NCBI GenBank assembly: GCA_038045185.1
Contig: JBBSYO010000020.1
Coordinates: 1 to 52,734, forward strand
From: Nanobdellota archaeon
GTDB taxonomy: Archaea > Nanobdellota > Nanobdellia > Pacearchaeales > GW2011-AR1
DNA length: 52,734 bases
Direction: 5' to 3'
Below, in pieces: positions 6,197-52,734 of this stretch. How positions within the stretch are numbered: position 1 is the stretch's first letter; each line of letters starts with the position of its first letter. The translations under genes were made by a program, and so were the position numbers. The notes under the pieces are model-generated. The model was not told where the DNA came from. It searched no databases and saw nothing but the letters and a program-made list of their open reading frames with translations.

Positions 6197-6388
6197 ATGC
6201 CTGGGGATGTAAACAATAAGATAGTTATTGGATTAGAGTCAACAATATTTTTAGTCTCTTTAATAATAGTCATCTTGCATAAGGTAGGAAATTTGTTTAT
6301 TCCGTGGGTCACACCCATATCTTGGTTAATTTTCTTAGGGACAGTTGGTTATTTTATAATTAGGATGATACAGAATATTAACCGTTAA
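6197..6388 (+). CDS. small two-TM membrane peptide
   Basis: 63 aa with two hydrophobic helices. Starts 1 nt after the preceding stop. Confidence 0.4.
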   Translation: MPGDVNNKIVIGLESTIFLVSLIIVILHKVGNLFIPWVTPISWLIFLGTVGYFIIRMIQNINR

Positions 6389-7695
6389 TTACTAAAACTC
6401 TCTTGTAAAACTGACTCCACCAGCCTTTCCGAATTTTCTTGGTTTTCTTTAACTTGTTTTTCAAGTTCATCGCACAAAGCCATTAGCGTGTCGACTTTTT
6501 CAACGATACGTTTTTGCTCGGCAAGGGGCGGAAGCGGAACTTTTAGATTGCTTAGTGCAACTCCATTAACGTTTGGTTGTCCCGTGCCCATAGATTCTTC
6601 AAATAATTGTTGCCAATACAAACTAGAACCGAGAAATAACTTAACGTACGCGGGATTTATTGTCTTATTCGGAATTGCTCTAATCAAGTACGAAGCGAAA
6701 ACAGCTTTAACGTTGACATTCTTGACCATATAGGACTTTCCAATTGTTCCTCCGGTTCGGGCAATTAAAATATCGTTTTCGTTTAATAAGTATTTTTCAG
6801 ATTCTGAATTATCTATTTGACAACTTGGAACTTCTAACCAGTTAACTTTATCATTTTGAATATCTGTTATTCTCAACAGCCTTATGCCCTTTGTATTGTG
6901 GACTGCGGAAGCAGTATAGCCGTAATGAATTCTTTGGCAAACCTCCCCTAGTTTCGTCCATTCCCATCCCTTCGGCAACCCATAAGGCTTTTCCTCATCA
7001 GAGATTGGAGCAAGTGGCTTATCATTTCTGATCTTACCATCTTTGATGAGTCTGTCTTTTTCTGTCTTAATTTTCTTTAACAACTCTGACGCTGGCTCGT
7101 CTTGCGGGTCTTGCTGAACAAGCTTGCCTTGCACGGCGTCTTGGAGGATGCGCTGACGGAGTTTGGAGATATAAGATTCGTTTAAGTTATCAATCTCGTC
7201 TAATTTGGTTACTTTTTCAGAAATAGAATTTATTTTATTTCTGATTTTTACTTGCATCTCTAAATCAGGCAATTTTATCTCTAACGGAAGAAATTTATTA
7301 GGTTTTAGCTCTGTTTTAATTCCGCCTTTAATCTGGCTATTTATTGCCTCTTTGAAATTTTTACTTTTTAAGAAAGTCTTGAAGTATTCGATGTCTATTC
7401 TAGATTCATCAAACAAATAAGCTGAATAATGTATTGTGGCCAAAATGTCTTCTTTACCTTGATAAACTGAAACTGCCCCTTTCTCAACATTAATACCAGA
7501 AATTACCAAATCTCCTTTCTTTATCAATATCATATCAGTGTTTGTTGGCTTATCTGTTAAGTGTATTTCTCCTGAGAAATCAATTTTGTTTAACCTTCTC
7601 AAATTCATTCTATTTGCTTCTAAGGGTTTTATTCTACTTTCTCTTTCTTTTAAGAATGAGGAAATTTTAATTTTCTTCCAATTGAACATTGTCAA
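6385..7695 (-). CDS. hsdS: type I restriction-modification specificity subunit (HsdS)
   Basis: 436 aa with two variable halves separated by conserved helical spacers. The C-terminal PLPPLAEQKRIVEKVDTLMALCDELE and central LPDLEMQVKI match HsdS conserved regions. Confidence 0.85.
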   Translation of the reverse strand: MTMFNWKKIKISSFLKERESRIKPLEANRMNLRRLNKIDFSGEIHLTDKPTNTDMILIKKGDLVISGINVEKGAVSVYQGKEDILATIHYSAYLFDESRIDIEYFKTFLKSKNFKEAINSQIKGGIKTELKPNKFLPLEIKLPDLEMQVKIRNKINSISEKVTKLDEIDNLNESYISKLRQRILQDAVQGKLVQQDPQDEPASELLKKIKTEKDRLIKDGKIRNDKPLAPISDEEKPYGLPKGWEWTKLGEVCQRIHYGYTASAVHNTKGIRLLRITDIQNDKVNWLEVPSCQIDNSESEKYLLNENDILIARTGGTIGKSYMVKNVNVKAVFASYLIRAIPNKTINPAYVKLFLGSSLYWQQLFEESMGTGQPNVNGVALSNLKVPLPPLAEQKRIVEKVDTLMALCDELEKQVKENQENSERLVESVLQESFSN

Positions 7696-10599: not shown

Positions 10600-12036
10600 T
10601 TATTTTTCTCCTTGAATTTGACTAATAATTTCTTGAGTTCTTTTGATATTTGCTTGTATTCTTTCAATAATCTCTTCTTTAGAAAGCTCCCTTTCTGCTT
10701 CTGGTTTTGTGGGGTTGTTTATGTCCAAATTATAATTTCTTTTGATGATTTCATCTTTTGAAACCTTCCAGCATAAATGTTTAAATTTTTCATTTTCGCG
10801 GTTTGTCCACCATTCTTTCTCTAATTGAAACTCTTCATGACGAATTGGTTTTGTTTTATTATAAGTTACGGCGTCTTGGGGCAATGGATGCTCAAAGTAC
10901 CACACGTCTTTTGTTCCTCGTGAGTCTTTTTCGAAGAACAAGAGGTTGGTACGAATACCGGTGTAGGGGCTGAATACTCCATTGGGCAGACGTACTATAG
11001 TATGAAGATTAAATTCACTTAGCAACTTTTCCTTTATTCGCGTCTTTACACCCTCCCCAAACAAGAAGCCGTCAGGCAAAACTAGACCGCACTTCCCTCC
11101 ATCACGCAAGAGCTTCATAATAAGAACGAGAAACAAATCGGCTGTCTCTCTTGTTTTAAACTCGGCAGGGAAGTTGTTTTCGATACCGGTTTCTTCAGCT
11201 CCACCAAACGGAGGATTAGTGACCACAATATCGACCATATCTTTTGAGGTGTAATCTATTATAGGTCTTGATAACGAGTTATCATGGCGAATGTTAGGTA
11301 CTTCAATATCATGTAAAATCATGTTAGTCATACCCAACAAATGAGGCAAGGGTTTCTTCTCTATTCCCCTTATAGTCTTCTCTAGAATTTTTTGTTCTTC
11401 TACACTCTTTACATCTTTCTTAAGATGGTTAATAACCGATATAAGAAAGCCACCCGTTCCACAGGCAGGGTCCAGTACGATGTCTCCTAATTGAGGGTTA
11501 ACCATGTCAACGATGAATTGGGTAACAGGTCTTGGAGTGTAAAATTCTCCTGCGCTTCCCGCACTTTGCAACTCTTTTAAGATTGTTTCATAAATATCGT
11601 TGAATAAGTGTCTATCTTCAGCGCTTGTAAAATCAATTTCATTTATTTTGTTAATGACTTGGCGAATAAGGATGCCTTTTTTCATATAATTGTAGGCGTC
11701 TTCAAAGACTTGTTTTACAATATATCCCCTTTGGTCTGTCTTTTCATCAAGCTTCAGATTTTTTAGGGTTTTGAATAGATCATCATTGATAAAATCAAGC
11801 AGTTCGTCTCCTGTTATTCCTTCGGGATTCTCCGCCCACTTTCTCCACCTAATTTTTTCTGGTAAAGGACTTTTGTAGTTTTCATCTTCTGCTTCCCTCT
11901 CTTTTTCCATAGAGTCAAAAACTTTCAAGAAGATCATCCAAACCATTTGAGAGATACGTTGAGCATCTCCATCTACTCCTGCATCTTTACGCATGATGTC
12001 TCTTACTGATTTTACTATGTTGCCTAGATGAGCCAT
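10600..12036 (-). CDS. hsdM: type I restriction-modification N6-adenine DNA methyltransferase (HsdM)
   Basis: 478 aa. Motif I DPACGTGGFL, motif IV VVTNPPFGG, and an HsdM N-terminal helical domain. Confidence 0.92.
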   Translation of the reverse strand: MAHLGNIVKSVRDIMRKDAGVDGDAQRISQMVWMIFLKVFDSMEKEREAEDENYKSPLPEKIRWRKWAENPEGITGDELLDFINDDLFKTLKNLKLDEKTDQRGYIVKQVFEDAYNYMKKGILIRQVINKINEIDFTSAEDRHLFNDIYETILKELQSAGSAGEFYTPRPVTQFIVDMVNPQLGDIVLDPACGTGGFLISVINHLKKDVKSVEEQKILEKTIRGIEKKPLPHLLGMTNMILHDIEVPNIRHDNSLSRPIIDYTSKDMVDIVVTNPPFGGAEETGIENNFPAEFKTRETADLFLVLIMKLLRDGGKCGLVLPDGFLFGEGVKTRIKEKLLSEFNLHTIVRLPNGVFSPYTGIRTNLLFFEKDSRGTKDVWYFEHPLPQDAVTYNKTKPIRHEEFQLEKEWWTNRENEKFKHLCWKVSKDEIIKRNYNLDINNPTKPEAERELSKEEIIERIQANIKRTQEIISQIQGEK

Positions 12037-12080: not shown

Positions 12081-12752
12081 TTAAAGTCTCTTCTGCTTAT
12101 CCCGCCAACTCCAATACTCTTCTTTCCCTATAACCACATGATCGACAACATTTATGTCAAGAGAGTTGCCTGCATTGATTATTCTTTTTGTAATATCTAA
12201 GTCTTCCCTTGAAGGAGTTGGGTCTCCGGAAGGATGATTATGAATCAAGACTATTTTAGAAGCTGAATTCTTCAGCACGGGCTTGAATATCGTCTTGGCA
12301 TCAAAAATAGTTGAATCCATAGTTCCCTTAGAAATCAACTGCTCGCCGATAATGTGATTCTTTGTATTAAGCATTAAAACAATAAAATGCTCTTGCTTCT
12401 CATCCTTCAATCTATCATGAAACAAATCAAAGACATCCTTGGCACAAGTTATCTTTTTAACTGGGTGTTTGGCTTGTGAGCGCCTCTTGCCTAATTCGGC
12501 CATGGCAAGCAATTGCATAGCTTTGCTGGGACCGATACCTTTGATGCTTTGAAGTTCAACTAAAGAACATTCGAATAACTTATCTATGCCATGTTCTGCA
12601 ATAAGTCGATTTGACATATCAATAACGTTCTCGCCTTTACTTCCTGTCCTCAAGATTATAGCGAAAAGCTCGGCATCGCTTAGCGCTTGCGGACCATGTT
12701 TTAGGAAACGCTCTCTCGGCCTGTTCTGCTTCGGCATGTCATGGATTCTCAT
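12081..12752 (-). CDS. radC: RadC-like JAB/MPN domain protein
   Basis: 223 aa. N-terminal MPKQNRPRERF, an HhH-like IKGIGPSKA, and the JAMM motif HNHPSGDPTPS. Confidence 0.9.
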   Translation of the reverse strand: MRIHDMPKQNRPRERFLKHGPQALSDAELFAIILRTGSKGENVIDMSNRLIAEHGIDKLFECSLVELQSIKGIGPSKAMQLLAMAELGKRRSQAKHPVKKITCAKDVFDLFHDRLKDEKQEHFIVLMLNTKNHIIGEQLISKGTMDSTIFDAKTIFKPVLKNSASKIVLIHNHPSGDPTPSREDLDITKRIINAGNSLDINVVDHVVIGKEEYWSWRDKQKRL

Positions 12753-12782
12753 GGCTATGAATAGAAAAAATAGTTAATAATT

Positions 12783-14117: not shown

Positions 14118-14192
14118 CGTGCTTCAAAAAACGCTCTCTCGGCCTGTTTTGCTTCGGCATGTCATGGATTCTCATGGCTATGAATAGAAAAA
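14118..14192 (-). repeat. displaced radC 5' end (promoter-proximal region plus 19 codons), remnant B
   Basis: Minus strand reads MRIHDMPKQNRPRERFLKH and then diverges to a stop. It differs from intact radC at 6 nt in 5 codons, all synonymous. The upstream ggctatgaatagaaaaa is identical. Confidence 0.85.
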
Positions 14193-14633
14193 CTAATTAT
14201 TTGAATTCCTTTTAAGAGTAACCCTTTCTTCTTTTTGGTCAAAGATAATGACAAACTTATCAAAAAAGCCTGCTCTCCCAAGCAAAACAGGGATTTCCTG
14301 GCCGTCAAGGACAATTCCTTTGTTCAAGATAACTTTTACAGGCAGGTCAAATTTATATGTTTCATGAGGCTTTCCAATTTCTAAGAACAGTTTAGACTGC
14401 ACTGCTGGAACTTTTCCTCCGATACCAGCCGCATCTTCCTTTTTGCCGCTTAAATCAACCCCTAATAATTCTGCTACTTCTTCGGGTATTGCTGAGACAT
14501 CTGCTCCAGAATCGAGCAGAGCTACAAAAGTATATTTCCCGCCTGCCCCAGATAAGGTAACGGGAATTGAAGGAGACTTTACTTCTATATTATTTGGTCT
14601 TTTTACACGTTTGTAACGAAAGGCAAGGCTCAT
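14193..14633 (-). CDS. retropepsin-like (clan AA) aspartic protease
   Basis: 146 aa with ALLDSGADVSAIP (D-S/T-G-A active-site signature). Confidence 0.7.
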   Translation of the reverse strand: MSLAFRYKRVKRPNNIEVKSPSIPVTLSGAGGKYTFVALLDSGADVSAIPEEVAELLGVDLSGKKEDAAGIGGKVPAVQSKLFLEIGKPHETYKFDLPVKVILNKGIVLDGQEIPVLLGRAGFFDKFVIIFDQKEERVTLKRNSNN

Positions 14634-14843: not shown

Positions 14844-14994
14844 ATTATTCTTTCTTAATGTCCTTATTTAAAGGTTCTCAAGCCTTCCAAGAAGTAGCAA
14901 CAAAGACAACTTTAGAAGAATACCTCCTTTTATTCATAGTATCAAATATACTCATTAATATATAAAGATTGTTCTTAACTATTGCTCGAGAATA

Positions 14995-15020
14995 TCATGG
15001 ATTCTCATGTGATTGATTAG
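14995..15020 (-). repeat. displaced radC 5' end, remnant C (MRIHD plus upstream-like bases)
   Basis: tcatggattctcatg is identical to the radC start region. The minus strand reads MRIHD and then ILEQ-stop. Confidence 0.5.
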
Positions 15021-15328
15021 AGGTTCATCTCCTCAAGCTCCTGGCTGACTAGGGATTCAGCTTCTTCTAACTGGAAAGCAACATCGGGATATTTTTTAAT
15101 GCTCTTATTTTTGAAGAATTCAATCGCAACCCTCTTTATATCCTGCTTATCTTCCTCATTCCAGTTGAATTCCTTCGCGCTTTTAATCGCAGAAGCCCGA
15201 TACTCGCTTTCCTCATAGAGCAAATGGCTCATTGACTCAGGCTTGTTTGTGTAACGAGCAAGCATCTTATGCAATACAACGTTGCCTATGATTTTCCCAA
15301 GCGTCTTTAAAGCACTATTTTTTCCCAT
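15017..15328 (-). CDS. hypothetical protein (103 aa)
   Basis: ORF overlapping the 3' end of the upstream nucleotidyltransferase ORF by 22 nt; no motif recognised. Confidence 0.35.
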   Translation of the reverse strand: MGKNSALKTLGKIIGNVVLHKMLARYTNKPESMSHLLYEESEYRASAIKSAKEFNWNEEDKQDIKRVAIEFFKNKSIKKYPDVAFQLEEAESLVSQELEEMNL

Positions 15329-16128: not shown

Positions 16129-16170
16129 ATAATATCTTATAGTATTAAGTGCTATTTAAAGGCCTCTATC

Positions 16171-16371
16171 TTAGGATTCTGCTTCGGCATGTCCTTGATT
16201 CTCATTTTTCTTCTTTTTCTTAAGAATTATCTTGCCATCTTTAGCATGTATATCAAGATAATCCCCTTCTTCAATGCCTGCTTCTCTTATTATTAAGGGC
16301 GGAATATTAACCATATATTTGTAATAATCCTTATTTTTGTGCTTGCGCAGGAATCTTTTTTGCACTTTCAC
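16171..16371 (-). CDS. AbrB/SpoVT-type (MazE-like) small DNA-binding protein
   Basis: GTG start. YMVNIPPLIIREAGIEEGDYLDIHAKDGKIIL resembles a swapped-hairpin AbrB domain. The 3' end runs into radC remnant D. Confidence 0.5.
   Translation of the reverse strand: MKVQKRFLRKHKNKDYYKYMVNIPPLIIREAGIEEGDYLDIHAKDGKIILKKKKKNENQGHAEAES
16177..16205 (-). repeat. displaced radC 5' end, remnant D (MRIKDMPKQN)
   Basis: 29 nt with 2 mismatches to the radC start region (ttctgcttcggcatgtccttgattctcat). Confidence 0.6.
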
Positions 16372-18990: not shown

Positions 18991-19038
18991 CTTAAGATAG
19001 CTAAGAATTAACAAGTTAATGCCCTTCGGGCAACTCCG

Positions 19039-20031
19039 CTAAGACAATCTCTTCATTTCCAGCCAACTAATAAGTTTAGTCTTATCGGGAGGCACATCTT
19101 TCCTTGAATAATATACAAAATCCATTCTTTCATAGCATTTAGGACAATAACAAACTCGTCCTTCAGAAGCTTTTATGGAAATTGATTTTGCTATACTTGA
19201 CTTTAGAAATTTCTTTTTTCTCCTTGAATAAGCGCCGTAATATCTTGCAAGCTTCTGATTCTTTTCTGGAACATGCTGAATAATAGCAGAAATAAAATCA
19301 TGCACAAGCATGATTTTATAGTGTATCTTTTCATCATGATCTTTGTAATAGAATTTAACAGCCTCTTTATTGTAGGCAATTATCCTTGAGTTTGCTATTG
19401 CTGGATGCCGAACATATCTGCCCAAATATCTGGCTAAGCCCTTGCGAGAGGATATTCTATCCTCTCTGACATAAACACAAAAGCCATTAGGATATTTTCT
19501 ATATGCTTCCTCAATAATTCCTTTAGGAAGATATTTCTTCAGTTTTTTGAGGATATTATATTCCCATTTTTTATGCAGAGCATTATATGGAATATAATTT
19601 CCCAACGGAACAAATTTTCCCTGTTCATCAAATCCCCCTTCAGTAACAATAGTATGAACATGGGGTTGATTCTTCAAATCTTTTCCGAATGGATGAAACA
19701 CTTCAATAACTCCAGGAATTAAATCTCTTCTTTTCATATTAGAAAATACTTCTCGAATTGTTTTATATGCAACATCCATCAAAATCTTGTACAGCTTTCT
19801 ATCTTCTTGAAAATATTTCCAGAGCATATCTGGAATTCCAAAGACAAGATGCCTATGGAAGATATTTTTCTCTAATTTTTCAGCTAACATTGATGCCCAT
19901 TGGTCAGCATACCTCTTGCCACAGCAAGAGCATAGCCTTGAATTGCAGCCAAATGGGAGAAATCTATATTCGTTGCAATTCTTGCAATAATACCAAAATC
20001 CTCCTCTGCTTTCATCTTTGCAAGAAAGCAT
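19039..20031 (-). CDS. IS91-family (HUH Y2, rolling-circle) transposase
   Basis: Zn-binding CKNC...CNSRLCSCCG, HUH-type QPHVHTIVTEGG, and Y2-region RYLGRYVRHPAIANSRI and ARYYGAYSRR. Confidence 0.8.
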   Translation of the reverse strand: MLSCKDESRGGFWYYCKNCNEYRFLPFGCNSRLCSCCGKRYADQWASMLAEKLEKNIFHRHLVFGIPDMLWKYFQEDRKLYKILMDVAYKTIREVFSNMKRRDLIPGVIEVFHPFGKDLKNQPHVHTIVTEGGFDEQGKFVPLGNYIPYNALHKKWEYNILKKLKKYLPKGIIEEAYRKYPNGFCVYVREDRISSRKGLARYLGRYVRHPAIANSRIIAYNKEAVKFYYKDHDEKIHYKIMLVHDFISAIIQHVPEKNQKLARYYGAYSRRKKKFLKSSIAKSISIKASEGRVCYCPKCYERMDFVYYSRKDVPPDKTKLISWLEMKRLS

Positions 20032-20184
20032 TTTCTCTACTTCAATTCTTTCTATCTCTCTAACCTTATTTGCCCCTAGGTAATCTTCCCAGCTCTCCTG
20101 GAAGATTTGTTTTACTGAATAGAAAGGTTTTTCTTTGTTCTCTCTTTTATTGTTATATGTTGTTTCGTGAATAAAAACAACATA

Positions 20185-20210
20185 GGGTTAGCACCTAAAA
20201 AGGCTAACCC
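20185..20210. other. perfect 8-bp stem hairpin upstream of the transposase gene (candidate IS end structure)
   Basis: GGGTTAGC-acctaaaaag-GCTAACCC. Confidence 0.4.
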
Positions 20211-20409
20211 TTTATACTTTATATACTAATAATTATTTGCGACGAAAATAATAATGCGATAAAGAAACTAACTTAAATTATTTCTTATAAAATTATTATT
20301 TCTAAAAAATGTTTCTTTAGTATAAAATCTTAGCTGGGCTGTGCTGTTTATAGTGCGTCATACAATACAGCACCGAAAGATATAAATAAAAGCAAATTCC
20401 TAAAACAAT

Positions 20410-21898: not shown

Positions 21899-22088
21899 TC
21901 CCCCTACAAATTAAAATAATAATGTAAGGGGAAAGAATTAAAGATTCTTGACAATTTGAATAGCTTGTAACATAGTCAAGTAAATTCTTTATAACTATCA
22001 ACAAATAGTTTACAACAACAAACCAAACGATTGATAGTGGCTGCCGCGCCGAACGGTTTCGTTCGGAGTGCTCCTTCCGCTTTTATCT

Positions 22089-22420
22089 ATCAAAAAGTCC
22101 TTGAGTTTACCACACCTTAAAACGTCAGGAATCATGGATTCCTGAGCGCCTCGAAATTCAAAGAATTTCTCAGCCTCAAGAACTATTGTTCTTGATGGCC
22201 ATCAAAGATTTGCATCTTTGAGGGGTGTGGTTTGTGTGGGACTCACCAAGAACTTGGTTCTTGGGTGCACGAAGAACCGAAGGTTGCTTCGTGTTTGGAT
22301 GCAAGAAAATCATTGCTAAAGATGATTTTCTGCACAGAGAATTACGAGAGCAAGCAATTCTCTTGTGCTCAAGAAGCGACCACACCATGAATGGTGTGGT
22401 TTTCGTCAAGCTTCTTGACA
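22089..22420 (+). repeat. structured hairpin-modular element E1 (long form)
   Basis: Starts ATCAAAAAGTCCTTGAGT. Homologous along its length to 35119-35350, with indels that are whole hairpins. At least 9 stem-loops are readable. Confidence 0.8.
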
Positions 22421-22468
22421 TCAAAAACAAAAAAGCCCTTGGGTGCGCGCACCAAGGGCAGGGATTTA

Positions 22469-22783
22469 TCAATATCTCGGACGGAAGAACGGAAGCACAA
22501 GACTCTTTTCAAGTGGATGCAAGCCGCGGTATTCGTGCGTATTGTCAAAACTGACAAAGCGCAGCAGAGAGCCGTAACGCTTTTGCAGTGCACGCTTAAC
22601 TTTCTCGCGCGCATACTCATAATTCCAGCCACGAACAACAAGTTTTTCTTCGAATCTTAATGGTTGCGAATCAGTCTGAGAAGAAATTGATTCCCCTTCC
22701 AAAGGATGCTCGCAAGAATCTCTCTCGTATCTTACTGCAACTTCCCAATTTCCATCTTTTTTCACAAGGCGTTTTTTCGTCAT
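22469..22783 (-). CDS. hypothetical protein (104 aa), uncertain
   Basis: ORF only. A near-perfect palindrome CCCTTGGGTGCGCGCACCAAGGG lies just 3' of its stop. Confidence 0.3.
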   Translation of the reverse strand: MTKKRLVKKDGNWEVAVRYERDSCEHPLEGESISSQTDSQPLRFEEKLVVRGWNYEYAREKVKRALQKRYGSLLRFVSFDNTHEYRGLHPLEKSLVLPFFRPRY

Positions 22784-26370: not shown

Positions 26371-26539
26371 AATCACCTCTTTTTCCCAGGAGAGGACGTT
26401 TCATCCATCTTCTTGAAGGGTGAAGCCTCCTCTCTTCGGGTTTGAACAACTATAGAGTTTAAGGAAATCGTTCTTCAAGACCTTCCAAGAAAGTCCTCGC
26501 AGAGGCAGGAAGGCATATCCGAACGAAGGAAGAGGTGAT
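26371..26539. ncRNA. candidate structured small RNA (family and strand unresolved)
   Basis: 10-bp terminal helix ATCACCTCTT/AAGAGGTGAT. Nested hairpin CGTTC..CCTTCC..CCTC-gca-GAGG..GGAAGG..GAACG. TATA boxes lie at the appropriate distance on both sides. No ORF. Confidence 0.4.
26470..26539. repeat. 70-bp direct repeat, left copy (part of the candidate RNA)
   Basis: Identical 70/70 to 27380-27449 by direct comparison. Confidence 0.9.
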
Positions 26540-27161: not shown

Positions 27162-27215
27162 TAAATATTACCATTATTTATAAACTTTTCCATTTATCGT
27201 GATAAATACCATTTT

Positions 27216-27345
27216 ATTAGAATTTTTGGGTTGAATACCCCACAGCTTGCTGTGGAGTGAAAATTCTAATTAGAAAATCGTGAATCAGAAATTTCCGAAT
27301 ACCGCGGAGCTTGCTCCGGTTCGGTAGGAAATTTCAACGATTTTC
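27216..27345 (+). repeat. 130-bp double-hairpin element, copy 1
   Basis: Two long imperfect hairpins, each with an AGCTTGCT apex. Matches the reverse complement of 39561-39690 with 4 mismatches. Confidence 0.9.
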
Positions 27346-27379
27346 TTTATCTTCTCGGGTTTAAAATCAGGAGTTGGGG

Positions 27380-27449
27380 GTTCTTCAAGACCTTCCAAGA
27401 AAGTCCTCGCAGAGGCAGGAAGGCATATCCGAACGAAGGAAGAGGTGAT
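27380..27449. repeat. 70-bp direct repeat, right copy
   Basis: Identical to 26470-26539. Confidence 0.9.
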
Positions 27450-32962: not shown

Positions 32963-33055
32963 ATCAAAAAGTTCTTGAGTTCATTGTGTGAACTTTTGGA
33001 TGCTCAGGAATGCTGCGCCCTAAAGGGCGTGGTTTGAACCACATTCCTGACATCA
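32963..33055 (+). repeat. structured element E3 (short form)
   Basis: ATCAAAAAGTTCTTGAGT... Hairpin AAAAGTTC/GAACTTTT, then TCAGGAATG...CATTCCTGA. Collinear with 52522-52680. Confidence 0.75.
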
Positions 33056-34865
33056 TCAGCCCAGAAACAAGAAAAGCAATCCACCATATCAAAGCACCGC
33101 GATCTTTCTCTTCTTCGCGGCAATCGTGGCAATCAGGTCCTCCACAATCCGCCCCAGCCTCATTAATATCCTTGACCATGTTATAGCAATGAAGAGGATA
33201 ACGCTTGGCAGACTGCATCAGCAAAACGCGCAACGTCGGGATATTCTCATTCAAAATAACCTGCGCGACTGGTGCAGACAATTGCGCATTGACGAGAGAG
33301 ACGCCCTTTTCTCCAGGAGCAAGCGGATTATCCGAAGTGCCGTCATAAGGAGTCACACTCACCACTGCAGACGAACTCTCTATACGTATCACACTAACTG
33401 AAATATCATAAGCCCTATCGCCGTCCAAATCAAACACTCTCGTCTCCCCAGCAATCATGTCAGATTCTTGCGGACTGCTCGCAACACGCACACGCACGCT
33501 ATTCTTAGACACGCGAAGCACACTAACAGCATGCTCCTCTCCCTGCACACGAACAAGAATCTCTGCGTTCTCCTTCAATTCACGCGTCACGCTGCCATAA
33601 AGAGATAAATCCTGTTCCAGATAATCGTATGTCGCGCGTGTGCGTGTATCTCTCCGTGCAGAAATGCGCGCAGAATCATCGCTTGGAGGGGTCTCCTGAA
33701 CAAGAGTCTCATCAGGCGTAATATCAGAATCGTCATCATTAAAAGCAACCACATCAAGCGGTGGACTTGGCATTACACATATTTTTGTATCCGTGAATGT
33801 ACGCTCGCAAACTTCGTCATAACATGTACGCGACTGCACGACTTGAGGTATTTCGTCCTCAAGCGCCACTAGTCCATCAAAAGAAAGACTTGTACAAGAA
33901 CTATATGGTCCGCACACTATCTTTACTCCACACTCAAGTTCACTATCAGCAGAAGGCAGTCCGTCTGCGTCTTCAAGAACTGTCCCATCAGGACCTAACG
34001 GCTCTTTATCAGGACCTGTCTCGGTCACAGACTCAACAGCAATATATCTCTCGGATGTAGCAAAAGATTCAGTCAGATAAATAAAAGAAATATACAAATC
34101 CGCCCATTTACGCGGAGTAGTGAAAGAGAACTTGCTCAAGTCTATAGCCACTGAATTATCCTTATCAGAAAATCCTTTAACTTTTTCAGTATAGAGAGAG
34201 CTAATACGTACAGTTACGCCAGACTGCGTTAAAGAAACAAAAGATTTATCAGTCTTCTCGCCCCGAAGCAAAACAGATTCTATACGTCCAAACTTTTCCG
34301 CAGGCAGTGTGGCTTCAATATCTTTCCCAGCACGAACGCGAAACACACGCTCGCCCGTGATAACTTCTGAAATGACTGCTGAATCAATACTGGGAGCAGG
34401 AGCGTTAGGAGGAGGGTCATCCGGTAGAGTTATACCACCCGCAGGAGCCACACCTGAAACAGTTGCGCTGATCCTAGAAGATCCGCCAGAAGAAACAGGA
34501 GGAGTATCTGACAGCGCAAGAGTAACTTCAAGATAAGGAGAAAATTCAACTTCTTCCAGCGTTTCAGCAATAGAAGGTTCAAGCAGCACATCACGCAGAG
34601 GCATTCTTTTGGTAAGCGTGTTGACACTTAAAACAACATCGCTGTCAATAGGCAGTACTCCAGCTTCGTTAGGACGATAAAGGAAAGTGCCCTTGATAGT
34701 ATCTCCTGCAGTAATCTTATCAATAACAAAATCTCCTGCCGCGCGACCAGTCAATGTAAATTCAAAAAAGGCCAGGCTCGTCACCAAAATCAAAACAGCA
34801 AGCGCGAGAGAAACAACCAGCAACGTGCGTGAAAAATCAGAGCTGGGTGAGAGCATACGGACCAT
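32964..34865 (-). CDS. large surface protein with N-terminal signal anchor, Cys-rich region and C-terminal TM
   Basis: 633 aa. N-terminal LLVVSLALAVLILVTSLAFF and C-terminal ALIWWIAFLVSGLMMSGMWF. The last ~30 codons read through element E3. Confidence 0.6.
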   Translation of the reverse strand: MVRMLSPSSDFSRTLLVVSLALAVLILVTSLAFFEFTLTGRAAGDFVIDKITAGDTIKGTFLYRPNEAGVLPIDSDVVLSVNTLTKRMPLRDVLLEPSIAETLEEVEFSPYLEVTLALSDTPPVSSGGSSRISATVSGVAPAGGITLPDDPPPNAPAPSIDSAVISEVITGERVFRVRAGKDIEATLPAEKFGRIESVLLRGEKTDKSFVSLTQSGVTVRISSLYTEKVKGFSDKDNSVAIDLSKFSFTTPRKWADLYISFIYLTESFATSERYIAVESVTETGPDKEPLGPDGTVLEDADGLPSADSELECGVKIVCGPYSSCTSLSFDGLVALEDEIPQVVQSRTCYDEVCERTFTDTKICVMPSPPLDVVAFNDDDSDITPDETLVQETPPSDDSARISARRDTRTRATYDYLEQDLSLYGSVTRELKENAEILVRVQGEEHAVSVLRVSKNSVRVRVASSPQESDMIAGETRVFDLDGDRAYDISVSVIRIESSSAVVSVTPYDGTSDNPLAPGEKGVSLVNAQLSAPVAQVILNENIPTLRVLLMQSAKRYPLHCYNMVKDINEAGADCGGPDCHDCREEEKDRGALIWWIAFLVSGLMMSGMWFKPRPLGRSIPEHPKVHTMNSRTF

Positions 34866-34911: not shown

Positions 34912-35118
34912 CGATTAGGGCAAGGGACGCTGATATTTAGCTGTTTACGCCTTTGCTACATGGAAAAAATTTTCCAATATTCGAAAGTTTTCAATCCAAA
35001 AAGTGCCTAATCACCATAAGATATTTCTGGGAAAAAGATATCTGTAACACCCGAAGATACAACAATACATTAAGGCAGAGAACTTTATATAGAACAAAAG
35101 AGAAAGGAAAGTATGAAA

Positions 35119-35350
35119 ATCAAAAAGTCCTTGAGTCTACCACAGCTTAAAACCTCAAGAACTGCAGTTCTTGATGGCCGTCAAAAATCTGAACTTAAGA
35201 AGATTTTTGAGGGGCGTGGTTTGTGTGGGACTTTGGGATGCAAGAGAAATCAGAAGATTTCTCGGCACAGAGAATTGCACGAGGAAAAAGCAATTCTCTT
35301 GTGCTCACGAACGCCACACTCTAAAGAGTGTGGTTTTAACGTTCGTGACA
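35119..35350 (+). repeat. structured element E2 (long form), directly upstream of pyrH
   Basis: Homologous to E1. tttatata at 35084-35091 lies about 27-30 nt upstream of its first base. Confidence 0.8.
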
Positions 35351-35364
35351 GAAGAACTTTGGTT

Positions 35365-36036
35365 ATGAGCTTGGGCGGCAGTGTCATCATACCAGAGCAA
35401 AAAAATGACAATTTTTTGCTGAAACTGCGCGCCACACTGAAGAAATATTATCGCACGCACAAGTTCGTGCTCGTCTGCGGAGGCGGTTCAATTGCCCGCG
35501 CGTACATAACCCTTCTTGAAAAAGAGCACAAAAACCATCGCGAGCAATCAGAGGCAGGCATTCGCGCAACGCGCATGAATGCAGAGCTTATCATGCAAGT
35601 ATTCGGAAAAGAGGCGAATTCAGCACTCCCGAAAAACATGAAATCAGTCAGGTCAGAGCTTCACAAAAATAACGTTGTCGTCTCTGGAGCACTCCGCTAT
35701 GCCCCGCATCAGACTTCAGACACCACTGCCGCTAAACTAGCAGCCTATCTGAAATCAGAATTCGTCAACCTAACCAACGTTCCTGGTCTATACACCAGCG
35801 ACCCGCGCAAAAACAAAGCAGCAAAACTAATCCCACACATCTCATGGAAAGAATTTGAAGCAAAGGCGCATGCAATAAGATTCAGTCCAGGAGAACATTT
35901 TGTCCTTGACCAGAAAGCTTCGACACTCATCAGGAAACACAAGATAAAAACATTCATTATGGGGAAAGATGCAAACAACCTCAAAAAATTCCTTAATAAT
36001 GAAAAGTGGCTCGGAACGCAAATCGACTCCCAATGA
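35365..36036 (+). CDS. pyrH: archaeal-type UMP kinase
   Basis: MSLGGSVI..., VLVCGGGSIARAYI, GIRATRMNAELI. The ORF-track extension back to 35113 only reads through element E2. Confidence 0.8.
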   Translation: MSLGGSVIIPEQKNDNFLLKLRATLKKYYRTHKFVLVCGGGSIARAYITLLEKEHKNHREQSEAGIRATRMNAELIMQVFGKEANSALPKNMKSVRSELHKNNVVVSGALRYAPHQTSDTTAAKLAAYLKSEFVNLTNVPGLYTSDPRKNKAAKLIPHISWKEFEAKAHAIRFSPGEHFVLDQKASTLIRKHKIKTFIMGKDANNLKKFLNNEKWLGTQIDSQ

Positions 36037-37930: not shown

Positions 37931-39559
37931 ATGGCAAAGCTAAAATTTCCGCGCAAACTGATTGAACAGCACCTTAAGTTAGACAACTCAACAATAACCG
38001 ACCTTAGTTTATTTGGCACCCCGCTCGAATCACTAACTAATGAAGAAGTGGAACTCGAAATATCTGCCAACCGCCCCGACCTTCTTTCGGCGCGCGGATT
38101 TCTTCGCGCCTTTCAGGCTTACAAAGGCAAAAAAACAGGGCTCAGAACATACGCCGTAGCGCACGACCGTAAACCGAACTACACAGTCGTTATAGACAAG
38201 GGCGTTAAATCATGTCCCCGACCGCACATAGCCTGTGCCGTAGTTAAAAACCTTTCGCTAACAGATGCGACTCTTAAAGAGATTATACGATTACAAGAAA
38301 AGTTAGCACTCACGCTTGGCCGTCAACGCAAGAAATGCGGCATAGGTATCTATCCAATGGAAAAAATAAATTTCCCAATCAGATACGAATCTCGTAAGCC
38401 ATTAGATATCGAGTTCACGCCTCTCGGTTTTACAAAATCAGCAAACGCTCACCAGATTCTGCAAAAACACCCGATAGGAAAAGAATATGCACACCTGCTA
38501 GATGGCGCGGATAGATTTCCCATATTCATCGACGCAAAAAAACAGATTCTTTCCATGCCTCCGATAATTAACAGCCAGAACACTGGTCACGTCACCGCGC
38601 AAACAAAAGATGTCTTCATCGAATGCTCAGGTCAGGACATTACAATACTCAATGCCGCGCTATCCGTCTTCGTCACGTTTTGTGCAGAAATAGGTGGCAC
38701 GATTGAAGCAGTTGAAATGCGCGGCGATAATAAACATATCTCGCCAGACCTTAAAGCAAAAACAATAAAGCTGAATAAAGAATCAATTGAACGCACACTC
38801 GGCATCACTCTAACTGAAAAAGAAATCGCACAGCTTCTCTCGCGGATGGGGCACGATTACAATAAAGGAGTCGTCACCTACGGTTGCTGGCGCATAGATA
38901 TCTTACACGAAGCAGATATCATTGAAGATATTGCTATTGCCTACGGCTATGATAAATTCACACCCATCATTCCAGGCATTTCCACAGTAGGAGAAGAAGC
39001 GTTCGAAAGCAAAGCCGAAACCAAAATAATCGAATCTTTGGTTGGCTTGGGCTTTCTCGAAACTACATCATTACACTTTATTACAGCAGAAGAAAAAGAA
39101 AGGGAAAAAGTAGAGCACCCCATAGAAGTCGAAGACCCGCGCACCGAGTATGCTTATCTAAGACCCAACCTGCTAATACCGACGCTAAGAACACTGGCGC
39201 ACAACCTCCACGCAGAATATCCTCAAAAAATATGCGAGACAGGAGCAGTATTCACCAGAAAACTTAATCAAATCAGAGAAGAACAGCACCTCATAATTGC
39301 GCACACGCCAGCCAACTTTACCATCATAAAGCAAGAACTTGATTATCTATTCCGTATGCTCAATCTCACTTACGAACTAAAAGAAACACAGGTCAACGGA
39401 CTAATAGAGGGCCGCACAGCATCAGTCATCTTTGAAGGCAAAGAAATCGGCTTCATTGGAGAATTTCATCCCTCAACATTGCGGGAATGGCATCTCAAAA
39501 TGCCTCTTGCCGTAGCAGAGATTAATCTAATACATATCTATGAGATATTGAAGAAATAA
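37931..39559 (+). CDS. pheT: phenylalanyl-tRNA synthetase beta subunit (archaeal type)
   Basis: 542 aa immediately after pheS. B3/4- and B5-like regions (ISANRPDLLS, IGIYPM). Confidence 0.9.
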   Translation: MAKLKFPRKLIEQHLKLDNSTITDLSLFGTPLESLTNEEVELEISANRPDLLSARGFLRAFQAYKGKKTGLRTYAVAHDRKPNYTVVIDKGVKSCPRPHIACAVVKNLSLTDATLKEIIRLQEKLALTLGRQRKKCGIGIYPMEKINFPIRYESRKPLDIEFTPLGFTKSANAHQILQKHPIGKEYAHLLDGADRFPIFIDAKKQILSMPPIINSQNTGHVTAQTKDVFIECSGQDITILNAALSVFVTFCAEIGGTIEAVEMRGDNKHISPDLKAKTIKLNKESIERTLGITLTEKEIAQLLSRMGHDYNKGVVTYGCWRIDILHEADIIEDIAIAYGYDKFTPIIPGISTVGEEAFESKAETKIIESLVGLGFLETTSLHFITAEEKEREKVEHPIEVEDPRTEYAYLRPNLLIPTLRTLAHNLHAEYPQKICETGAVFTRKLNQIREEQHLIIAHTPANFTIIKQELDYLFRMLNLTYELKETQVNGLIEGRTASVIFEGKEIGFIGEFHPSTLREWHLKMPLAVAEINLIHIYEILKK

Positions 39560-39560
39560 A

Positions 39561-39690
39561 GAAAATCGTTGAAATTTCCTACCGAACCGGAGCAAGCTCC
39601 GCGGTATTCGGAAATTTCTACTCCACGATTTTCTAATTAGAATTTTTACTCCACAGCAAGCTGTGGGGTATTCAACCCAAAAATTCTAAT
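39561..39690 (-). repeat. 130-bp double-hairpin element, copy 2 (inverted relative to copy 1)
   Basis: Starts 2 nt after the pheT stop and ends overlapping the ATG at 39689. 126/130 identity to copy 1 after reverse-complementing. Confidence 0.9.
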
Positions 39691-40897
39691 GAAAATGAAT
39701 AGCGACTTACAACTCATGCGTAAAAAACATAAAATAACAATTATCGTCGCCTCCATTATTCTTCTGCTGGGCTTGACCTTCTTCGGCGGCTTCTATGTCT
39801 CATCTAAAAAGCAGGAAGCGAGCATACAGCATCCAGAGCAAAATGCAGGCATAATAACAGAAGAACCGATAATTGAGTCTCAAATAATAAACTTGAGTAT
39901 TGCACAGTTGACTCTTGATTCTGAGGATATAGAAGGTGGCTACATTCTAAAGAGGCACTCTTCTGGACTTATAAAAGAAGATAACAACGAATACTTTATT
40001 AAAAAATTTGATAAAGAGACTCTAGAGGTTAAAGAATTTAGAACTCTCTACATAGAGACGTATAAGTTTAGCACAATAGAAGAAGCCGACAAAGAGTTTG
40101 CTAAACTGGATGAAAATATCAGGAACCCTAATTTGAGATTTGAACCGATTGAATTAGAGCAGATTGGTGATGCCAGCAGATATTACAAAACAGATTATCT
40201 TTATAATTTCTATTCATTTGAAGGTTATCTGGGATTAGTAAAATTAAACAATATCATATTTAAAATAGGTATTTCTGGCATTTCAAACTCGATTAACAAA
40301 GAAGAATTAACATATTACTCAAAGAAGCTTATAGAGAAAACCGAGAAAGATTCGGCAGACAATTTTGAGATCTCAGCAACACAGAAGGCGCCCCCCAAAG
40401 AGAATCTGAAAATATCCTTACAGATTCGTAATCAAAGCTCTGGTACAAGCAACAGATGGAAAGAACAAGATAAAATAATTTTAGCTTGGGACTATAACTT
40501 TATCGATAACGAATTCAAGATAAGACAGAACACAGATGATAGCGGTAATACACTCTGGGTTCACTATTTTTATATGTCCCAGAATAAAGAGTTCTTGATA
40601 TTAGACACATGTCTAAACAATTCTCAAAACGAGAGCATTTCTCTCGTCTCCAAATACTTGCTGTTGCGAGATAGTCTAGGAAATATCTATACCGCCTTTG
40701 CAAGAGAAGATGAAATAAACATTCTCAGAAATAACAGAAAGGTCTGCGTGAAATATATCTTTCCTGTATTAAAAAAAGATAGATTTCCGAAGATTAAAGA
40801 GTTTAATCTTGAAATAAAAGACGAGAGAGGAACTACCTTGGGAAAAATCGGTGTCGCGGCTAGCGATTTGAGTAGATACAGACAAGAGAACAACTAG
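39689..40897 (+). CDS. membrane-anchored hypothetical protein (402 aa), AT-rich
   Basis: N-terminal TM ITIIVASIILLLGLTFFGGFYV; no motif recognised. Confidence 0.5.
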   Translation: MKMNSDLQLMRKKHKITIIVASIILLLGLTFFGGFYVSSKKQEASIQHPEQNAGIITEEPIIESQIINLSIAQLTLDSEDIEGGYILKRHSSGLIKEDNNEYFIKKFDKETLEVKEFRTLYIETYKFSTIEEADKEFAKLDENIRNPNLRFEPIELEQIGDASRYYKTDYLYNFYSFEGYLGLVKLNNIIFKIGISGISNSINKEELTYYSKKLIEKTEKDSADNFEISATQKAPPKENLKISLQIRNQSSGTSNRWKEQDKIILAWDYNFIDNEFKIRQNTDDSGNTLWVHYFYMSQNKEFLILDTCLNNSQNESISLVSKYLLLRDSLGNIYTAFAREDEINILRNNRKVCVKYIFPVLKKDRFPKIKEFNLEIKDERGTTLGKIGVAASDLSRYRQENN

Positions 40898-40941: not shown

Positions 40942-41013
40942 AGCCTCAGGGGGGAATTGAACCCCCGACTTCAACATTACCAATGTTGCGTTCTACCGCT
41001 GAACTACTGAGGC
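40942..41013 (-). tRNA. tRNA-Thr (GGT)
   Basis: GCCTCAG-TA-GTTC-AGCGGTA-GAAC-G-CAACA-TTGGTAA-TGTTG-AAGTC-GGGGG-TTCAATT-CCCCC-CTGAGGC-T. Confidence 0.9.
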
Positions 41014-42006
41014 AAGTCTGTCAAGATGTCGCTCGTTAGAAAAACCTATAAGATCCATCCAACGCTTCACCTGATTAATACCGTAAATCTCTATTATATA
41101 AATTTGTCTTTTTTCATTAAAAGTATTATATAGGCTAAAATGTCGAGATAAATAAGAAACTAATTGATTATACAAATCTTTACTCACAGTCTGTAAAGCT
41201 ATTCTAGGATAATATAATTTGTAACTTTTTCTTTTATCTATAAAAACACAACCATCAGTATCAAATATGCCTCGGATAGTTGCTCTAACGAGTTCATCCT
41301 TAGATTGCATAATTCTATCGGGAATGGCAATAGTATGAGCTTTCTTGCCTGGAACGAATCCAAAACCATGTTTAAAAAAATTAAAAAGGTCTTTAGAATA
41401 AAAAACAATCCTCACACCATTAACCTTTCCATAAGAAGAATAAATATGAGGTTTTAAATCGGGAACAACAGATTTGAAAGTGGGAATTATTAATTCATTA
41501 TAATATTGCACATCATATCTTCTATCGCCTGCAAATTCTATATGATACAATTTATTATTATAAAGGTTAAAACATCCATCCCCGATAAAAGCACCTACAC
41601 ATTGACATATTGAATGAGATAATTGTAAAGAAGCTAAAGAATCTTTAAAGGAAGAATCTTCTATTTTATGATACCTCTTAATATTTTTTAATCCCGTTTT
41701 CCTGCCCTCATCAAATTTCTTAAAGTTAATAAGATAAGCCTTTTTTCCCCCCATAACTTGCCCAAAATTATCAGGTAGTTTTTCAATGTTAGAAGAAACT
41801 TTTATTTTATCAGCTTCAGATAAAAATTCAATCAATCTTACAAATAAACTTTCAGGTATAAAGCAAGATCCATTTCTATAATGTTCCAAGGTGGATTTTG
41901 GTATTCCAAATTTGCCTCTTAGACCTTTCCAAGAGAGATTAAAAGATATCTTAACAGAATCAAATAAGTAATTTCTAGTTAAATTGTCCCTAATTTCTAT
42001 TCTCAT
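40993..42006 (-). CDS. double-motif LAGLIDADG homing-endonuclease-like protein
   Basis: Motifs CVGAFIGDGCF and IRGIFDTDGCV. Start taken at MRIEIRDN (TATA aaatatataaa about 27 nt upstream). The last 7 codons and stop lie inside tRNA-Thr. Confidence 0.8.
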   Translation of the reverse strand: MRIEIRDNLTRNYLFDSVKISFNLSWKGLRGKFGIPKSTLEHYRNGSCFIPESLFVRLIEFLSEADKIKVSSNIEKLPDNFGQVMGGKKAYLINFKKFDEGRKTGLKNIKRYHKIEDSSFKDSLASLQLSHSICQCVGAFIGDGCFNLYNNKLYHIEFAGDRRYDVQYYNELIIPTFKSVVPDLKPHIYSSYGKVNGVRIVFYSKDLFNFFKHGFGFVPGKKAHTIAIPDRIMQSKDELVRATIRGIFDTDGCVFIDKRKSYKLYYPRIALQTVSKDLYNQLVSYLSRHFSLYNTFNEKRQIYIIEIYGINQVKRWMDLIGFSNERHLDRLASVVQR

Positions 42007-42038
42007 ATTTGATAACACGACTCGGGTTTATATATTTT

Positions 42039-42634: not shown

Positions 42635-42702
42635 TTAGGAACAAGTTTGTATAAATATCTTTCGAGCAAGATTTTTAAGCCCTGAAAACACCCTATAACC
42701 CT

Positions 42703-42775
42703 AGCCCCGTCGTATAGTGGTCAAGTATTCGGGCCTCTGGCGCCCGAGACCCAGGTTCGAATCCTGGCGGGGCTA
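42703..42775 (+). tRNA. tRNA-Pro (TGG)
   Basis: AGCCCCG...CGGGC-CTCTGGC-GCCCG...CCAGG-TTCGAAT-CCTGG-CGGGGCT-A. TATA gatttttaag about 28 nt upstream. Confidence 0.9.
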
Positions 42776-42838
42776 TAACCAATTGAGCGAAGCGAAATGG
42801 TTTAGAACCGACAGCACTAAGAACCACAGTTCTTTCAG

Positions 42839-52158: not shown

Positions 52159-52523
52159 AGACATTCTTCTTTGATAGTTACGCCTTTTATGAAATAATAG
52201 CCAAAAATCCAGATTACGAAAAGTACAAAAAAGACATTGCGATAATAACAACAAGATTAAACCTGATGGAATTACATTATGGATTGCTTAGAACAGAAGG
52301 CAAAGATAAAGCCGATAAAATATACGATGCATATCTGGAGTTCGCAATTGAGATTAACGATAGTGTTATAAAAAAGTCAAATCAATTTAGGCTTGAGAAC
52401 AAAGACAAAAAACTCTCATACGTAGACTGCATAGGATACACACTGGCAAAAGAAAACAACGCACGGTTCCTCACAGGAGACCAACAGTTTAAAGAAATGG
52501 AAAACGTAGAGTTTGTTAAGTAA
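52146..52523 (+). CDS. vapC: PIN-domain toxin VapC
   Basis: FFFDSYAFYEII N-terminal strand, YVDCIGYTLA, and C-terminal FLTGDQQF. Confidence 0.75.
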   Translation: MEQIKTFFFDSYAFYEIIAKNPDYEKYKKDIAIITTRLNLMELHYGLLRTEGKDKADKIYDAYLEFAIEINDSVIKKSNQFRLENKDKKLSYVDCIGYTLAKENNARFLTGDQQFKEMENVEFVK

Positions 52524-52680
52524 TCAAAAAGTCCTTGAGTTTTTTGTGTAGGACTTTTGGATGCTCAGAAATGCGGCGCCCTAAAGCTTCGGGAATTTCA
52601 TCTAATGAATTCCCGATAGTCGTCAAGAATACAACGTCAAGCATTCTTGAGAGGCGCGGTTTGAACCAGCATTTCTGACA
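52522..52680 (+). repeat. structured element E4 (short form with two extra hairpins)
   Basis: ATCAAAAAGTCCTTGAGT... AAAAGTCC/GGACTTTT hairpin. TCAGAAATGC...GCATTTCTGA enclosing the GGGAATT/GAATTCCC and CAAGAAT/ATTCTTG hairpins. Confidence 0.75.
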
Positions 52681-52734
52681 TCACTTCTTCGCCTTTTCAA
52701 ACAACTCATCAACACGCACCCAATTAACAACATT
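52681..52734 (-). CDS. 3' end of a gene continuing beyond the window
   Basis: Minus strand reads ...NVVNWVRVDELFEKAKK-stop. Confidence 0.3.
   Translation of the reverse strand, partial: NVVNWVRVDELFEKAKK

Follow-up and report, generated by a model that had tools for sequence, protein, structure and literature searches.

The window, the whole stretch of 52,734 nt that was analysed, encodes archaeal RFC, the alpha and beta subunits of PheRS, HisRS, a UMP-kinase-like protein and an Rpb7-like protein, with a GC content of about 0.40. The host is a DPANN archaeon, and contigs encoding proteins identical to those of the window come from Hainich groundwater metagenomes. The first part (1-21000) is a low-GC island (0.30-0.38) with a type I restriction-modification system (hsdR, 1303-3642; hsdS, 6385-7695; hsdM, 10600-12036) and genes for PIN, PD-(D/E)XK, nucleotidyltransferase, Fic and RadC proteins. 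This region resembles an integrated or defence island and contains no copy of the repeat described below. A direct repeat of 40-80 nt is present there in three to four copies near gene starts (12697-12776, 14120-14199, 14982-15021 and 16150-16229). An IS91-family insertion sequence lies on the minus strand at about 19.0-20.2 kb (19020-20230) and encodes a Y2 transposase with an N-terminal zinc domain (Y2_Tnp + Zn_Tnp_IS91), of which the first ~25 residues may be missing in this copy. Two free-standing LAGLIDADG-domain ORFs, at 40993-42018 (minus strand) and 42967-43863 (plus strand), adjoin the genes for tRNA-Thr (40942-41013) and tRNA-Gln (42702-42776). Scanning the window against Rfam 15 at gathering thresholds returned only four tRNAs.

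An earlier note on this DNA had pointed to four elements with a common start, all on the plus strand, and this was borne out by an exact motif search of the window: the 18-mer ATCAAAAAGTYCTTGAGT occurs exactly four times, at 22089, 32963, 35119 and 52523, each time on the plus strand, where 0.32 occurrences are expected from shuffled sequence (four were reached in 0 of 100 shuffles). The boundaries proposed for these elements, which we call E1 to E4, stand overall, with small shifts of three 3' ends (E1 to 22423, E2 to 35353 and E4 to 52683). E1 (22089..22423, plus strand, 335 nt) and E2 (35119..35353, plus strand, 235 nt) are long forms, E3 (32963..33055, plus strand, 93 nt) is a short form, and E4 (52523..52683, plus strand, 161 nt) is the short core with two extra hairpins in the inner loop of its second stem. 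In the core part of the window this amounts to about one copy per 8 kb. The genes flanking E3 are convergent, and one of them, a 633-aa ORF on the minus strand, is made longer at its C-terminus by the element. E2 is placed between a TATA-like box (TTTATATA, 35084-35091) and the likely start codon of pyrH (35365), its first base being 27 nt past the box. E4 occupies the gap from the stop codon of a PIN gene to that of a convergent superoxide dismutase gene. With E1 taken out, the GC-rich segments that flank it (22036-22088 and 22424-22560) are able to pair with each other (z about −2.9). This could mean that E1 was inserted into an unassigned structured RNA, or the pairing may be meaningless; a permissive Rfam scan of the whole E1 intergenic region gave nothing above 20 bits.

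The common core, which is bare in E3, consists of ATCA, a first stem (P1), a GGATGC junction, a second stem (P2) and CAT(C/A)A. P1 has the form AAAAGTYC ... GRACTTTT with a loop that opens with TTGAGT; P2 has the form TCAxGxxxx ... xxxxCxTGA and encloses an inner hairpin (commonly CCACnnn-YTAAAR-nnnGTGG) followed by TTT. The left end of the family can be written (AT)CAAAAAGTYC TTGAGT ... GRACTTTT GGATGC, including P1, and the right end TCAAG-NNNN ... NNNN-CTTGAC(AT), including P2. In E3, P1 is formed by 32967-32974 with 32990-32997 and P2 by 33004-33012 with 33042-33050; GGATGC separates them, the inner hairpin lies within P2, and the element ends in CATCA. The long forms had been described as the first hairpin of the short form with modules inserted into its loop. 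Such inserts do exist, and further hairpins are accommodated in the 3' strand of P1 (E1), in the junction and in the inner loop of P2 (E4), so that the order in E1 is ATCA, P1 (interrupted by an insert of several hairpins and with two more in its 3' strand), a junction with two hairpins, P2 and CATCA. The junction modules of the long forms are of two kinds, AGAAAATY...RATTTTCT and CACAGARAAT...ATTYTCTTGTG.

It had also been claimed that E1 and E2 differ by compensatory changes in their stems and by insertion or deletion of whole hairpins, and each stem pair and hairpin quoted in support is present in the sequence. The E1 stems CAAGAAGC/GCTTCTTG, TCAAAGAT/ATCTTTGA and CCACACC/GGTGTGG correspond to CACGAACG/CGTTCGTG, TCAAAAATCT/AGATTTTTGA and CCACACTC/GAGTGTGG in E2, and two hairpins, TCAGGAAT-catgg-ATTCCTGA and GAAATTC-aaa-GAATTTC, are extra in E1. 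When compared with dinucleotide shuffles, the four elements folded as RNA give z-scores of −3.5, −5.2, −8.9 and −9.2; two values obtained for E copies folded as DNA are −5.8 and −9.0. Covariation was analysed in an alignment of 19 short copies made with MAFFT independently of structure. In this alignment 12 of 22 pairs are changed on both sides (49 cells) and 97.5% of the cells are paired, whereas controls with slid partners reach at most 51%. Among 500 shuffles the observed value was not reached on four of five measures; the remaining one, further pair types, was reached by 142. In 38 copies aligned to a covariance model, 20 of the 22 pairs covary (129 cells), an alignment that leans towards the model and in which a junction hairpin is sometimes aligned to P1. 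The changes are not evenly spread: across distant metagenome-assembled genomes (MAGs), sequence is near-invariant in P1, at the base of P2 and in the single-stranded ends, and the inner P2 stem and inner hairpin covary freely. Both alignments support the view, already put forward from E1 and E2, that the stems are conserved as structure and not as coding sequence. Perfect stems can alternatively be maintained by intrastrand templating instead of selection.

The distribution of the family was examined by a pattern search in one genome per species, with copies gathered by a pattern containing ATCA. At least 105 loci match, and roughly 45 true copies are found among the matches listed, all of them in MAGs of Woesearchaeota, Pacearchaeota or 'Nanoarchaeota'; the remaining listed matches are chance occurrences within coding sequence, from bacteria and a small number of other archaea. 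With a covariance model based on the 19 short copies, 54 matches in 46 archaeal loci were obtained. Many copies can be present in one genome, with at least 14 loci in MAG CAYIRC and at least six in MAG JAHIEH. Viral contigs yielded nine pattern matches and no real copy. A full-text literature search found no paper with the E motif, nor was a description of the family found in the literature on non-coding RNAs and repeats of DPANN archaea. E is therefore probably a previously undescribed family of small, non-coding mobile repeats of these archaea.

Metagenome contigs were scanned with the 633-aa protein encoded between E3 and E2, and three of them (L123-L125) proved to carry an orthologue with 78% amino-acid identity, most of the aligned flanking DNA being identical. 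These contigs have no match to E by the covariance model. At the E3 site they read ...AAGCGCA|ACCATCAACCC, where the window has ...AAGTGCA, the element (ATCAAAAAGT...CCTGAC) and then ATCATCAGCCC; the flanks align almost base for base and E3 is simply missing. In the empty lineage the orthologous gene codes for 616 aa and overlaps a convergent 182-aa gene; in the window its reading frame runs into E3, to give 633 aa. E2 is likewise missing from the orthologous intergenic region of L123 and L125, between the conserved TATA-like box and pyrH. Only the E3 empty site is base-exact, and a precise deletion in the other lineage could formally account for it. The earlier note had proposed to check whether copy positions vary between strains: E3 and E2 are absent from related contigs, but no strain-level empty sites were found among contigs encoding identical neighbouring proteins, every one of which carries the element where it spans the site (in two of them a run of N replaces E4).

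Copies elsewhere also behave as discrete units. Two 240-nt copies in MAG JBBSYY are nearly identical and their similarity starts exactly at ATCA, and six short copies in MAG CAYIRC share ATCA...CATAA in unrelated flanks. Tandem copies are joined as ...CTTGAC|ATCAAAAAGT. A variant copy is nested in a repeat of ~75 nt, 'H', which also occurs uninterrupted in the same MAG, as GGACAT|TAAT. The H repeat of MAG CAYIRC, TATAGTCAAGGACAT|TAATATTTCTGCAGTTTGTCGTTGACTAGATAGGGAAAGACTTATGTCTTTCACTATAG, often adjoins tRNA genes; its loci (L072, upstream of 1586; L001; L026; L075; L095; and L091, after 3088) are empty, carry an E-like insert or carry other hairpin modules. E copies often touch TAA stop codons. 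They are found near a stop codon, whichever its strand, or between a few and some tens of nucleotides ahead of a co-oriented start, and they keep a distance of ~100 nt from divergent starts; all four configurations relative to the neighbouring genes are seen. Metagenome contigs often end at E copies (the ends of L106, L109-L111, L117, L119 and L121), and two contigs (L114 and L116; 4382-4481) have exactly 100 N in place of E4, between its two ATCA.

The covariance model also led to a sister repeat, F2, with the same two-hairpin architecture as E and a different sequence (it starts with ATAAAGAAAATCGTTGA). Its two copies (27212..27350, minus strand, and 39556..39694, plus strand) are 96% identical over 139 nt in unrelated flanks and form an inverted pair separated by 12.2 kb. 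On the plus strand, F2 takes up exactly the space from the PheRS-beta stop codon to the next ATG; the other copy is preceded by TAA and followed by an ATG without a long ORF. A third repeat, F3 (70 nt, starting with ATCACC and ending with CTTGAAGAAC), is present in two copies with 100% identity, both on the minus strand: one (26470..26539) follows a PIN (VapC-like) gene and the other (27380..27449) is directly upstream of the minus-strand F2 copy. F2 and F3 begin with ATAA/ATCA, like E. The ATCA start and a CTTGA near the end of F3 only suggest that it may be mobilised by the same system.

The ends of E were then compared among copies. Nearly every copy has AT at its two ends, and E1, E3 and E4 have ATCA there. 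The 3' end has CAT in about 39 of 43 copies, with the next two bases varying (AA, CA, GA, TA, GT and others); the left boundary is ATCA or ACCA, which is compatible with insertion 3' of a fixed tetra- or pentanucleotide without duplication, as in IS200/IS605-derived elements, and the constancy of the 5' ATCA among the gathered copies has to be read with the collecting pattern, which itself contained ATCA. P1 and P2 lie 4 and 3-5 nt from the element ends. The flanks are A-rich (A at −2 in 30 of 43 copies and at +3 in 32 of 43). The empty E3 site has a single copy of the bracketing bases, AC(CA), which duplication of 2 nt, insertion into the A|T step or a shared recombination core would explain equally well. 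Taken together, end conservation and the two empty sites mean that the element is bracketed by AT, of which an empty site has one copy; the ATCA...ATCA of the window is this AT bracket extended by two host bases. No terminal inverted repeats (TIRs) are present, as the 5' end (CAAAAAGTCCTTGAG) does not match the reverse complement of the 3' end (GTCAAGATGC). An ordinary MITE, with TIRs and target-site duplications (TSDs), was the outcome that the earlier note had set against its own reading. The copies lack TIRs and have only a 2-4 nt AT(CA) direct repeat; E is therefore mobile and MITE-like but is not an ordinary MITE.

The earlier note had left the choice between a multi-copy structured RNA and a hairpin-based mobile or recombination element. 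Because of the empty sites, the discrete copies with unrelated flanks and the tandem and nested copies, we favour the second and are fairly confident that E elements are small, non-coding, non-autonomous mobile elements of DPANN archaea; discrete independent transcription, as the first would have it, found no support. It was directly observed that the units are discrete, that orthologous sites have or lack them, that they are spread in many copies, some of them tandem or nested, and that their pairing is conserved; from this we infer how the elements could move. E would insert into A-rich intergenic DNA at an AT dinucleotide, after which AT (ATCA in the window) brackets the copy. It would move through a folded single strand, either ssDNA, as in HUH-type transposition (IS200/IS605, IS91), or RNA, a choice that cannot be made from sequence. 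The conserved end hairpins would act as recognition sites and the interior would need only to fold, which would explain why conserved ends are found beside covarying interiors. IS200/IS605-derived elements of the PATE type (see below) and IS91 mini-elements work in this way.

The mobilising enzyme would be supplied in trans. Every ORF of the window of at least 120 aa that is not nested in a longer one, plus several shorter ones, was scanned with Pfam; the sole transposase among them is the IS91-type Y2 enzyme (19039-20031, minus strand). Neither a Y1 transposase nor TnpB was found in these ORFs or in ~370 kb of locus sequence, which also contained no convincing autonomous copy (5' end, ORF and 3' end) and no protein recurring beside E copies other than products of housekeeping or nucleotidyltransferase genes. 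Replication-strand bias, assessed through local GC skew, gave no signal (20 of 37 copies), in a test that is weak as skew mostly follows gene direction. Since orientation does not follow local GC skew, the occurrence of all four window copies on the plus strand may be due to chance.

A part of the evidence would also suit a different origin, in which the elements are first of all functional structured RNAs (trans-acting small RNAs, or the scaffold or guide of a nuclease or recombinase, like the omega-RNA of TnpB or the bridge RNA of IS110) whose genes were multiplied and whose mobility is secondary or RNA-linked. The strong covariation of the stems agrees with this, and so does the conservation across distant MAGs of single-stranded segments and of the unpaired loops UUGAGU, YUAAAR and GUGGUUUU, which exceeds the needs of a passive hairpin and hints at a function at the level of RNA or protein. 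A bulged U is conserved in the CACAGARAAU...CUUGUG module, and a conserved GUCAAG in the internal loop of P2 can pair with the CUUGAC of the 3' end. In 38 of 45 copies the complement folds less well than the element strand, which also has more G-U pairs (97 versus 58); one particular strand thus seems to matter, which is suggestive only, as the copies are not independent. Against an origin as RNA genes, no Rfam family matches E even at permissive thresholds, where the best sub-threshold matches of E1 and E3 are below 20 bits with E-values above 1; the earlier statement that no known RNA family could be assigned is upheld, the only matches of the window at gathering thresholds being the four tRNAs. 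Furthermore, E3 and E4 directly follow stop codons with no promoter-like sequence upstream, E lies in mixed orientation to its neighbouring genes, one of which has its end disrupted by E3, the window contains no TnpB, IscB or IS110 gene, and the target flanks are unconserved beyond their A-richness, unlike the specific targets of IS110. We consider an origin as RNA genes unlikely.

Narrower assignments were rejected one by one. E3 and E4 are not independent RNA genes with their own promoter; a TATA box is found upstream of E2 only, and in the empty lineage it belongs to pyrH. The elements are neither tRNA nor tmRNA. Several further readings were judged by inspection only and found no support: an integron attC site (the ends have no R''/R' cores, RYYYAAC...GTTRRRY, and the neighbours are housekeeping genes, HisRS, PheRS, pyrH and RFC), an H/ACA sRNA (ACA follows P2, but in place of a two-sided pseudouridylation pocket the internal loop is lopsided, with 2 nt against ~10 nt), a C/D box sRNA (no RUGAUGA or CUGA boxes in E), a BHB intron and a bridge RNA.

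A related idea combines structure and mobility: the folded strand could be an active partner in its own movement or in a host process, as an RNA scaffold or guide (omega-RNA-like or bridge-RNA-like) or as the substrate of a new archaeal single-strand transposition with an AT core. We regard this as speculative and unlikely. If it were true, E would be a self-specifying MITE family in DPANN archaea, and there would be a function for the unpaired loops that are conserved, for the asymmetry between strands and for the GUCAAG inside the element that can pair with its CUUGAC end.

The placement of the copies raises a further alternative, namely that they are cis-acting intergenic signals kept by the host, like the bacterial REP/BIME or BOX, which at gene ends would stabilise mRNA, mark sites for its processing or terminate transcription. 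Copies are indeed close to stop codons or co-oriented starts and ~100 nt from divergent gene starts, the plus-strand F2 copy fills precisely the space from a stop codon to the start that follows (the other F2 copy having TAA before it and, after it, an ATG without a long ORF), and E2 lies within the predicted leader of pyrH. Such positions are, however, also expected from tolerated insertions into ATAA/ATCA-rich DNA; the corresponding genes of close relatives have no E2 or E3, gene direction does not set the orientation of the copies, and the T run typical of archaeal terminators is absent after the copies. Signals maintained by the host are thus very unlikely, and the occurrence of all four gene configurations led us to reject a 5'-UTR or 3'-UTR element.

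Finally, E elements could be deletion derivatives (mini-elements) of the resident IS91-type rolling-circle transposon, moved by its Y2 transposase. The Y2_Tnp + Zn_Tnp_IS91 gene is 2 kb from E1. At E <= 1e-10 the transposase has 601 homologues; contigs of 1.2-1.7 kb carry most of them, and the few with a named source are from Nanoarchaeota. IS91 elements have no TIRs or TSDs, possess subterminal palindromes and use the tetranucleotides CTTG/GTTC/GTCC (PMC13181058), features that are comparable with those of E, whose left end has GTYC then CTTG and whose right end has CTTG. However, a five-copy alignment placed the transposon ends at GTATATAAAGTATAA plus a palindrome on the left and at GCCCGAAGGGC-ATTAA|CTTG on the right; the latter is a textbook IS91 right end, and these ends do not resemble those of E. 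The covariance model has no match in IS91-type loci, and E copies are flanked by A-rich DNA and not by CTTG or GTTC, the CTTG being inside the element, a few nucleotides from its 3' boundary. With unrelated ends, an IS91 derivative is rejected as extremely unlikely.

As mobile elements, E copies have consequences for their hosts and for the annotation of their genomes. DPANN archaea have very small, gene-dense genomes that are usually described as poor in mobile DNA. E is a real contributor to change in these genomes, through gene ends (E3), long structured leaders (E2) and exactly filled intergenic spacers. Since E2 begins 27 nt after the TATA-like box, it would be transcribed as a structured pyrH leader of 235 nt, and E3 appears to rewrite the C-terminus of the 633-aa protein. 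Gene callers are misled by the repeats: the pyrH ORF (35113-36036, plus strand) is extended upstream through E2 by a spurious N-terminal extension, the likely true start being the ATG at 35365, and the 633-aa ORF (32964-34865, minus strand) ends inside E3 with a C-terminal extension compared with the 616-aa orthologue. Copies also cause assembly breaks in metagenomes. With ends conserved across orders and covarying stems, E offers a clean system for finding an archaeal enzyme that recognises folded single strands.

Among known systems, classical MITEs share with E the small size, the lack of coding sequence, the many copies, a presence that is polymorphic (L123-L125 lack E3 and E2, and the H repeat is met with and without insert) and a tendency to break assemblies; E differs in having no terminal inverted repeats and in an interior made of independent hairpins instead of one long foldback. 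IS91/ISCR elements and Helitrons (HUH Y2) share with E the lack of TIRs and classical TSDs and the subterminal palindromes; CTTG and GTYC are found near the E ends, and the A|TC...|T register of E is compatible with a Helitron-type AT target. The ends of E nevertheless differ from the resident IS91-like ends, no CTTG/GTTC flanks it, and its 3' end is GACA, not CTRR.

Bacterial palindromic repeats offer a parallel in organization. BOX elements are built as boxA-boxB(n)-boxC, REPs are 20-40 nt long and linked to RAYT transposases, and Correia elements have TIRs and a TA duplication; together with Rickettsia palindromic elements, BOX, REP/BIME and Correia elements are modular hairpin units with stable folds that lie in intergenic regions of small genomes, encode no protein and occasionally overlap ORF ends. 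E is likewise modular, stably folded, intergenic, non-coding and overlapping with ORF ends, but these repeats belong to another domain of life and have no known sequence similarity to E. To our knowledge, none of them has ATCA...CTTGAC-AT ends.

In archaea, IS200/IS605 is the most widespread IS family (PMC13343696), and palindrome-associated transposable elements (PATEs) derived from it were described in Haloquadratum walsbyi (PMC3119063). Like PATEs, E elements are short, non-coding, multi-copy, archaeal and intergenic, lack TIRs, have hairpins near both ends and keep a constant short sequence at the left boundary. They differ in that no Y1 transposase or TnpB was found with E (window and ~370 kb of loci), the end hairpins P1 and P2 are dissimilar, an AT/ATCA repeat is present at both ends, many hairpin modules are optional and no replication-strand bias was detected in the weak GC-skew test. 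Because of the lack of a Y1 transposase or TnpB and the mismatch with IS91 ends, membership in PATEs or IS91 mini-elements is not established. In behaviour, PATEs and the modular bacterial BOX elements come closest to E, which is set apart from them by its ends, by the AT bracket, by its many optional modules and by a different host range.
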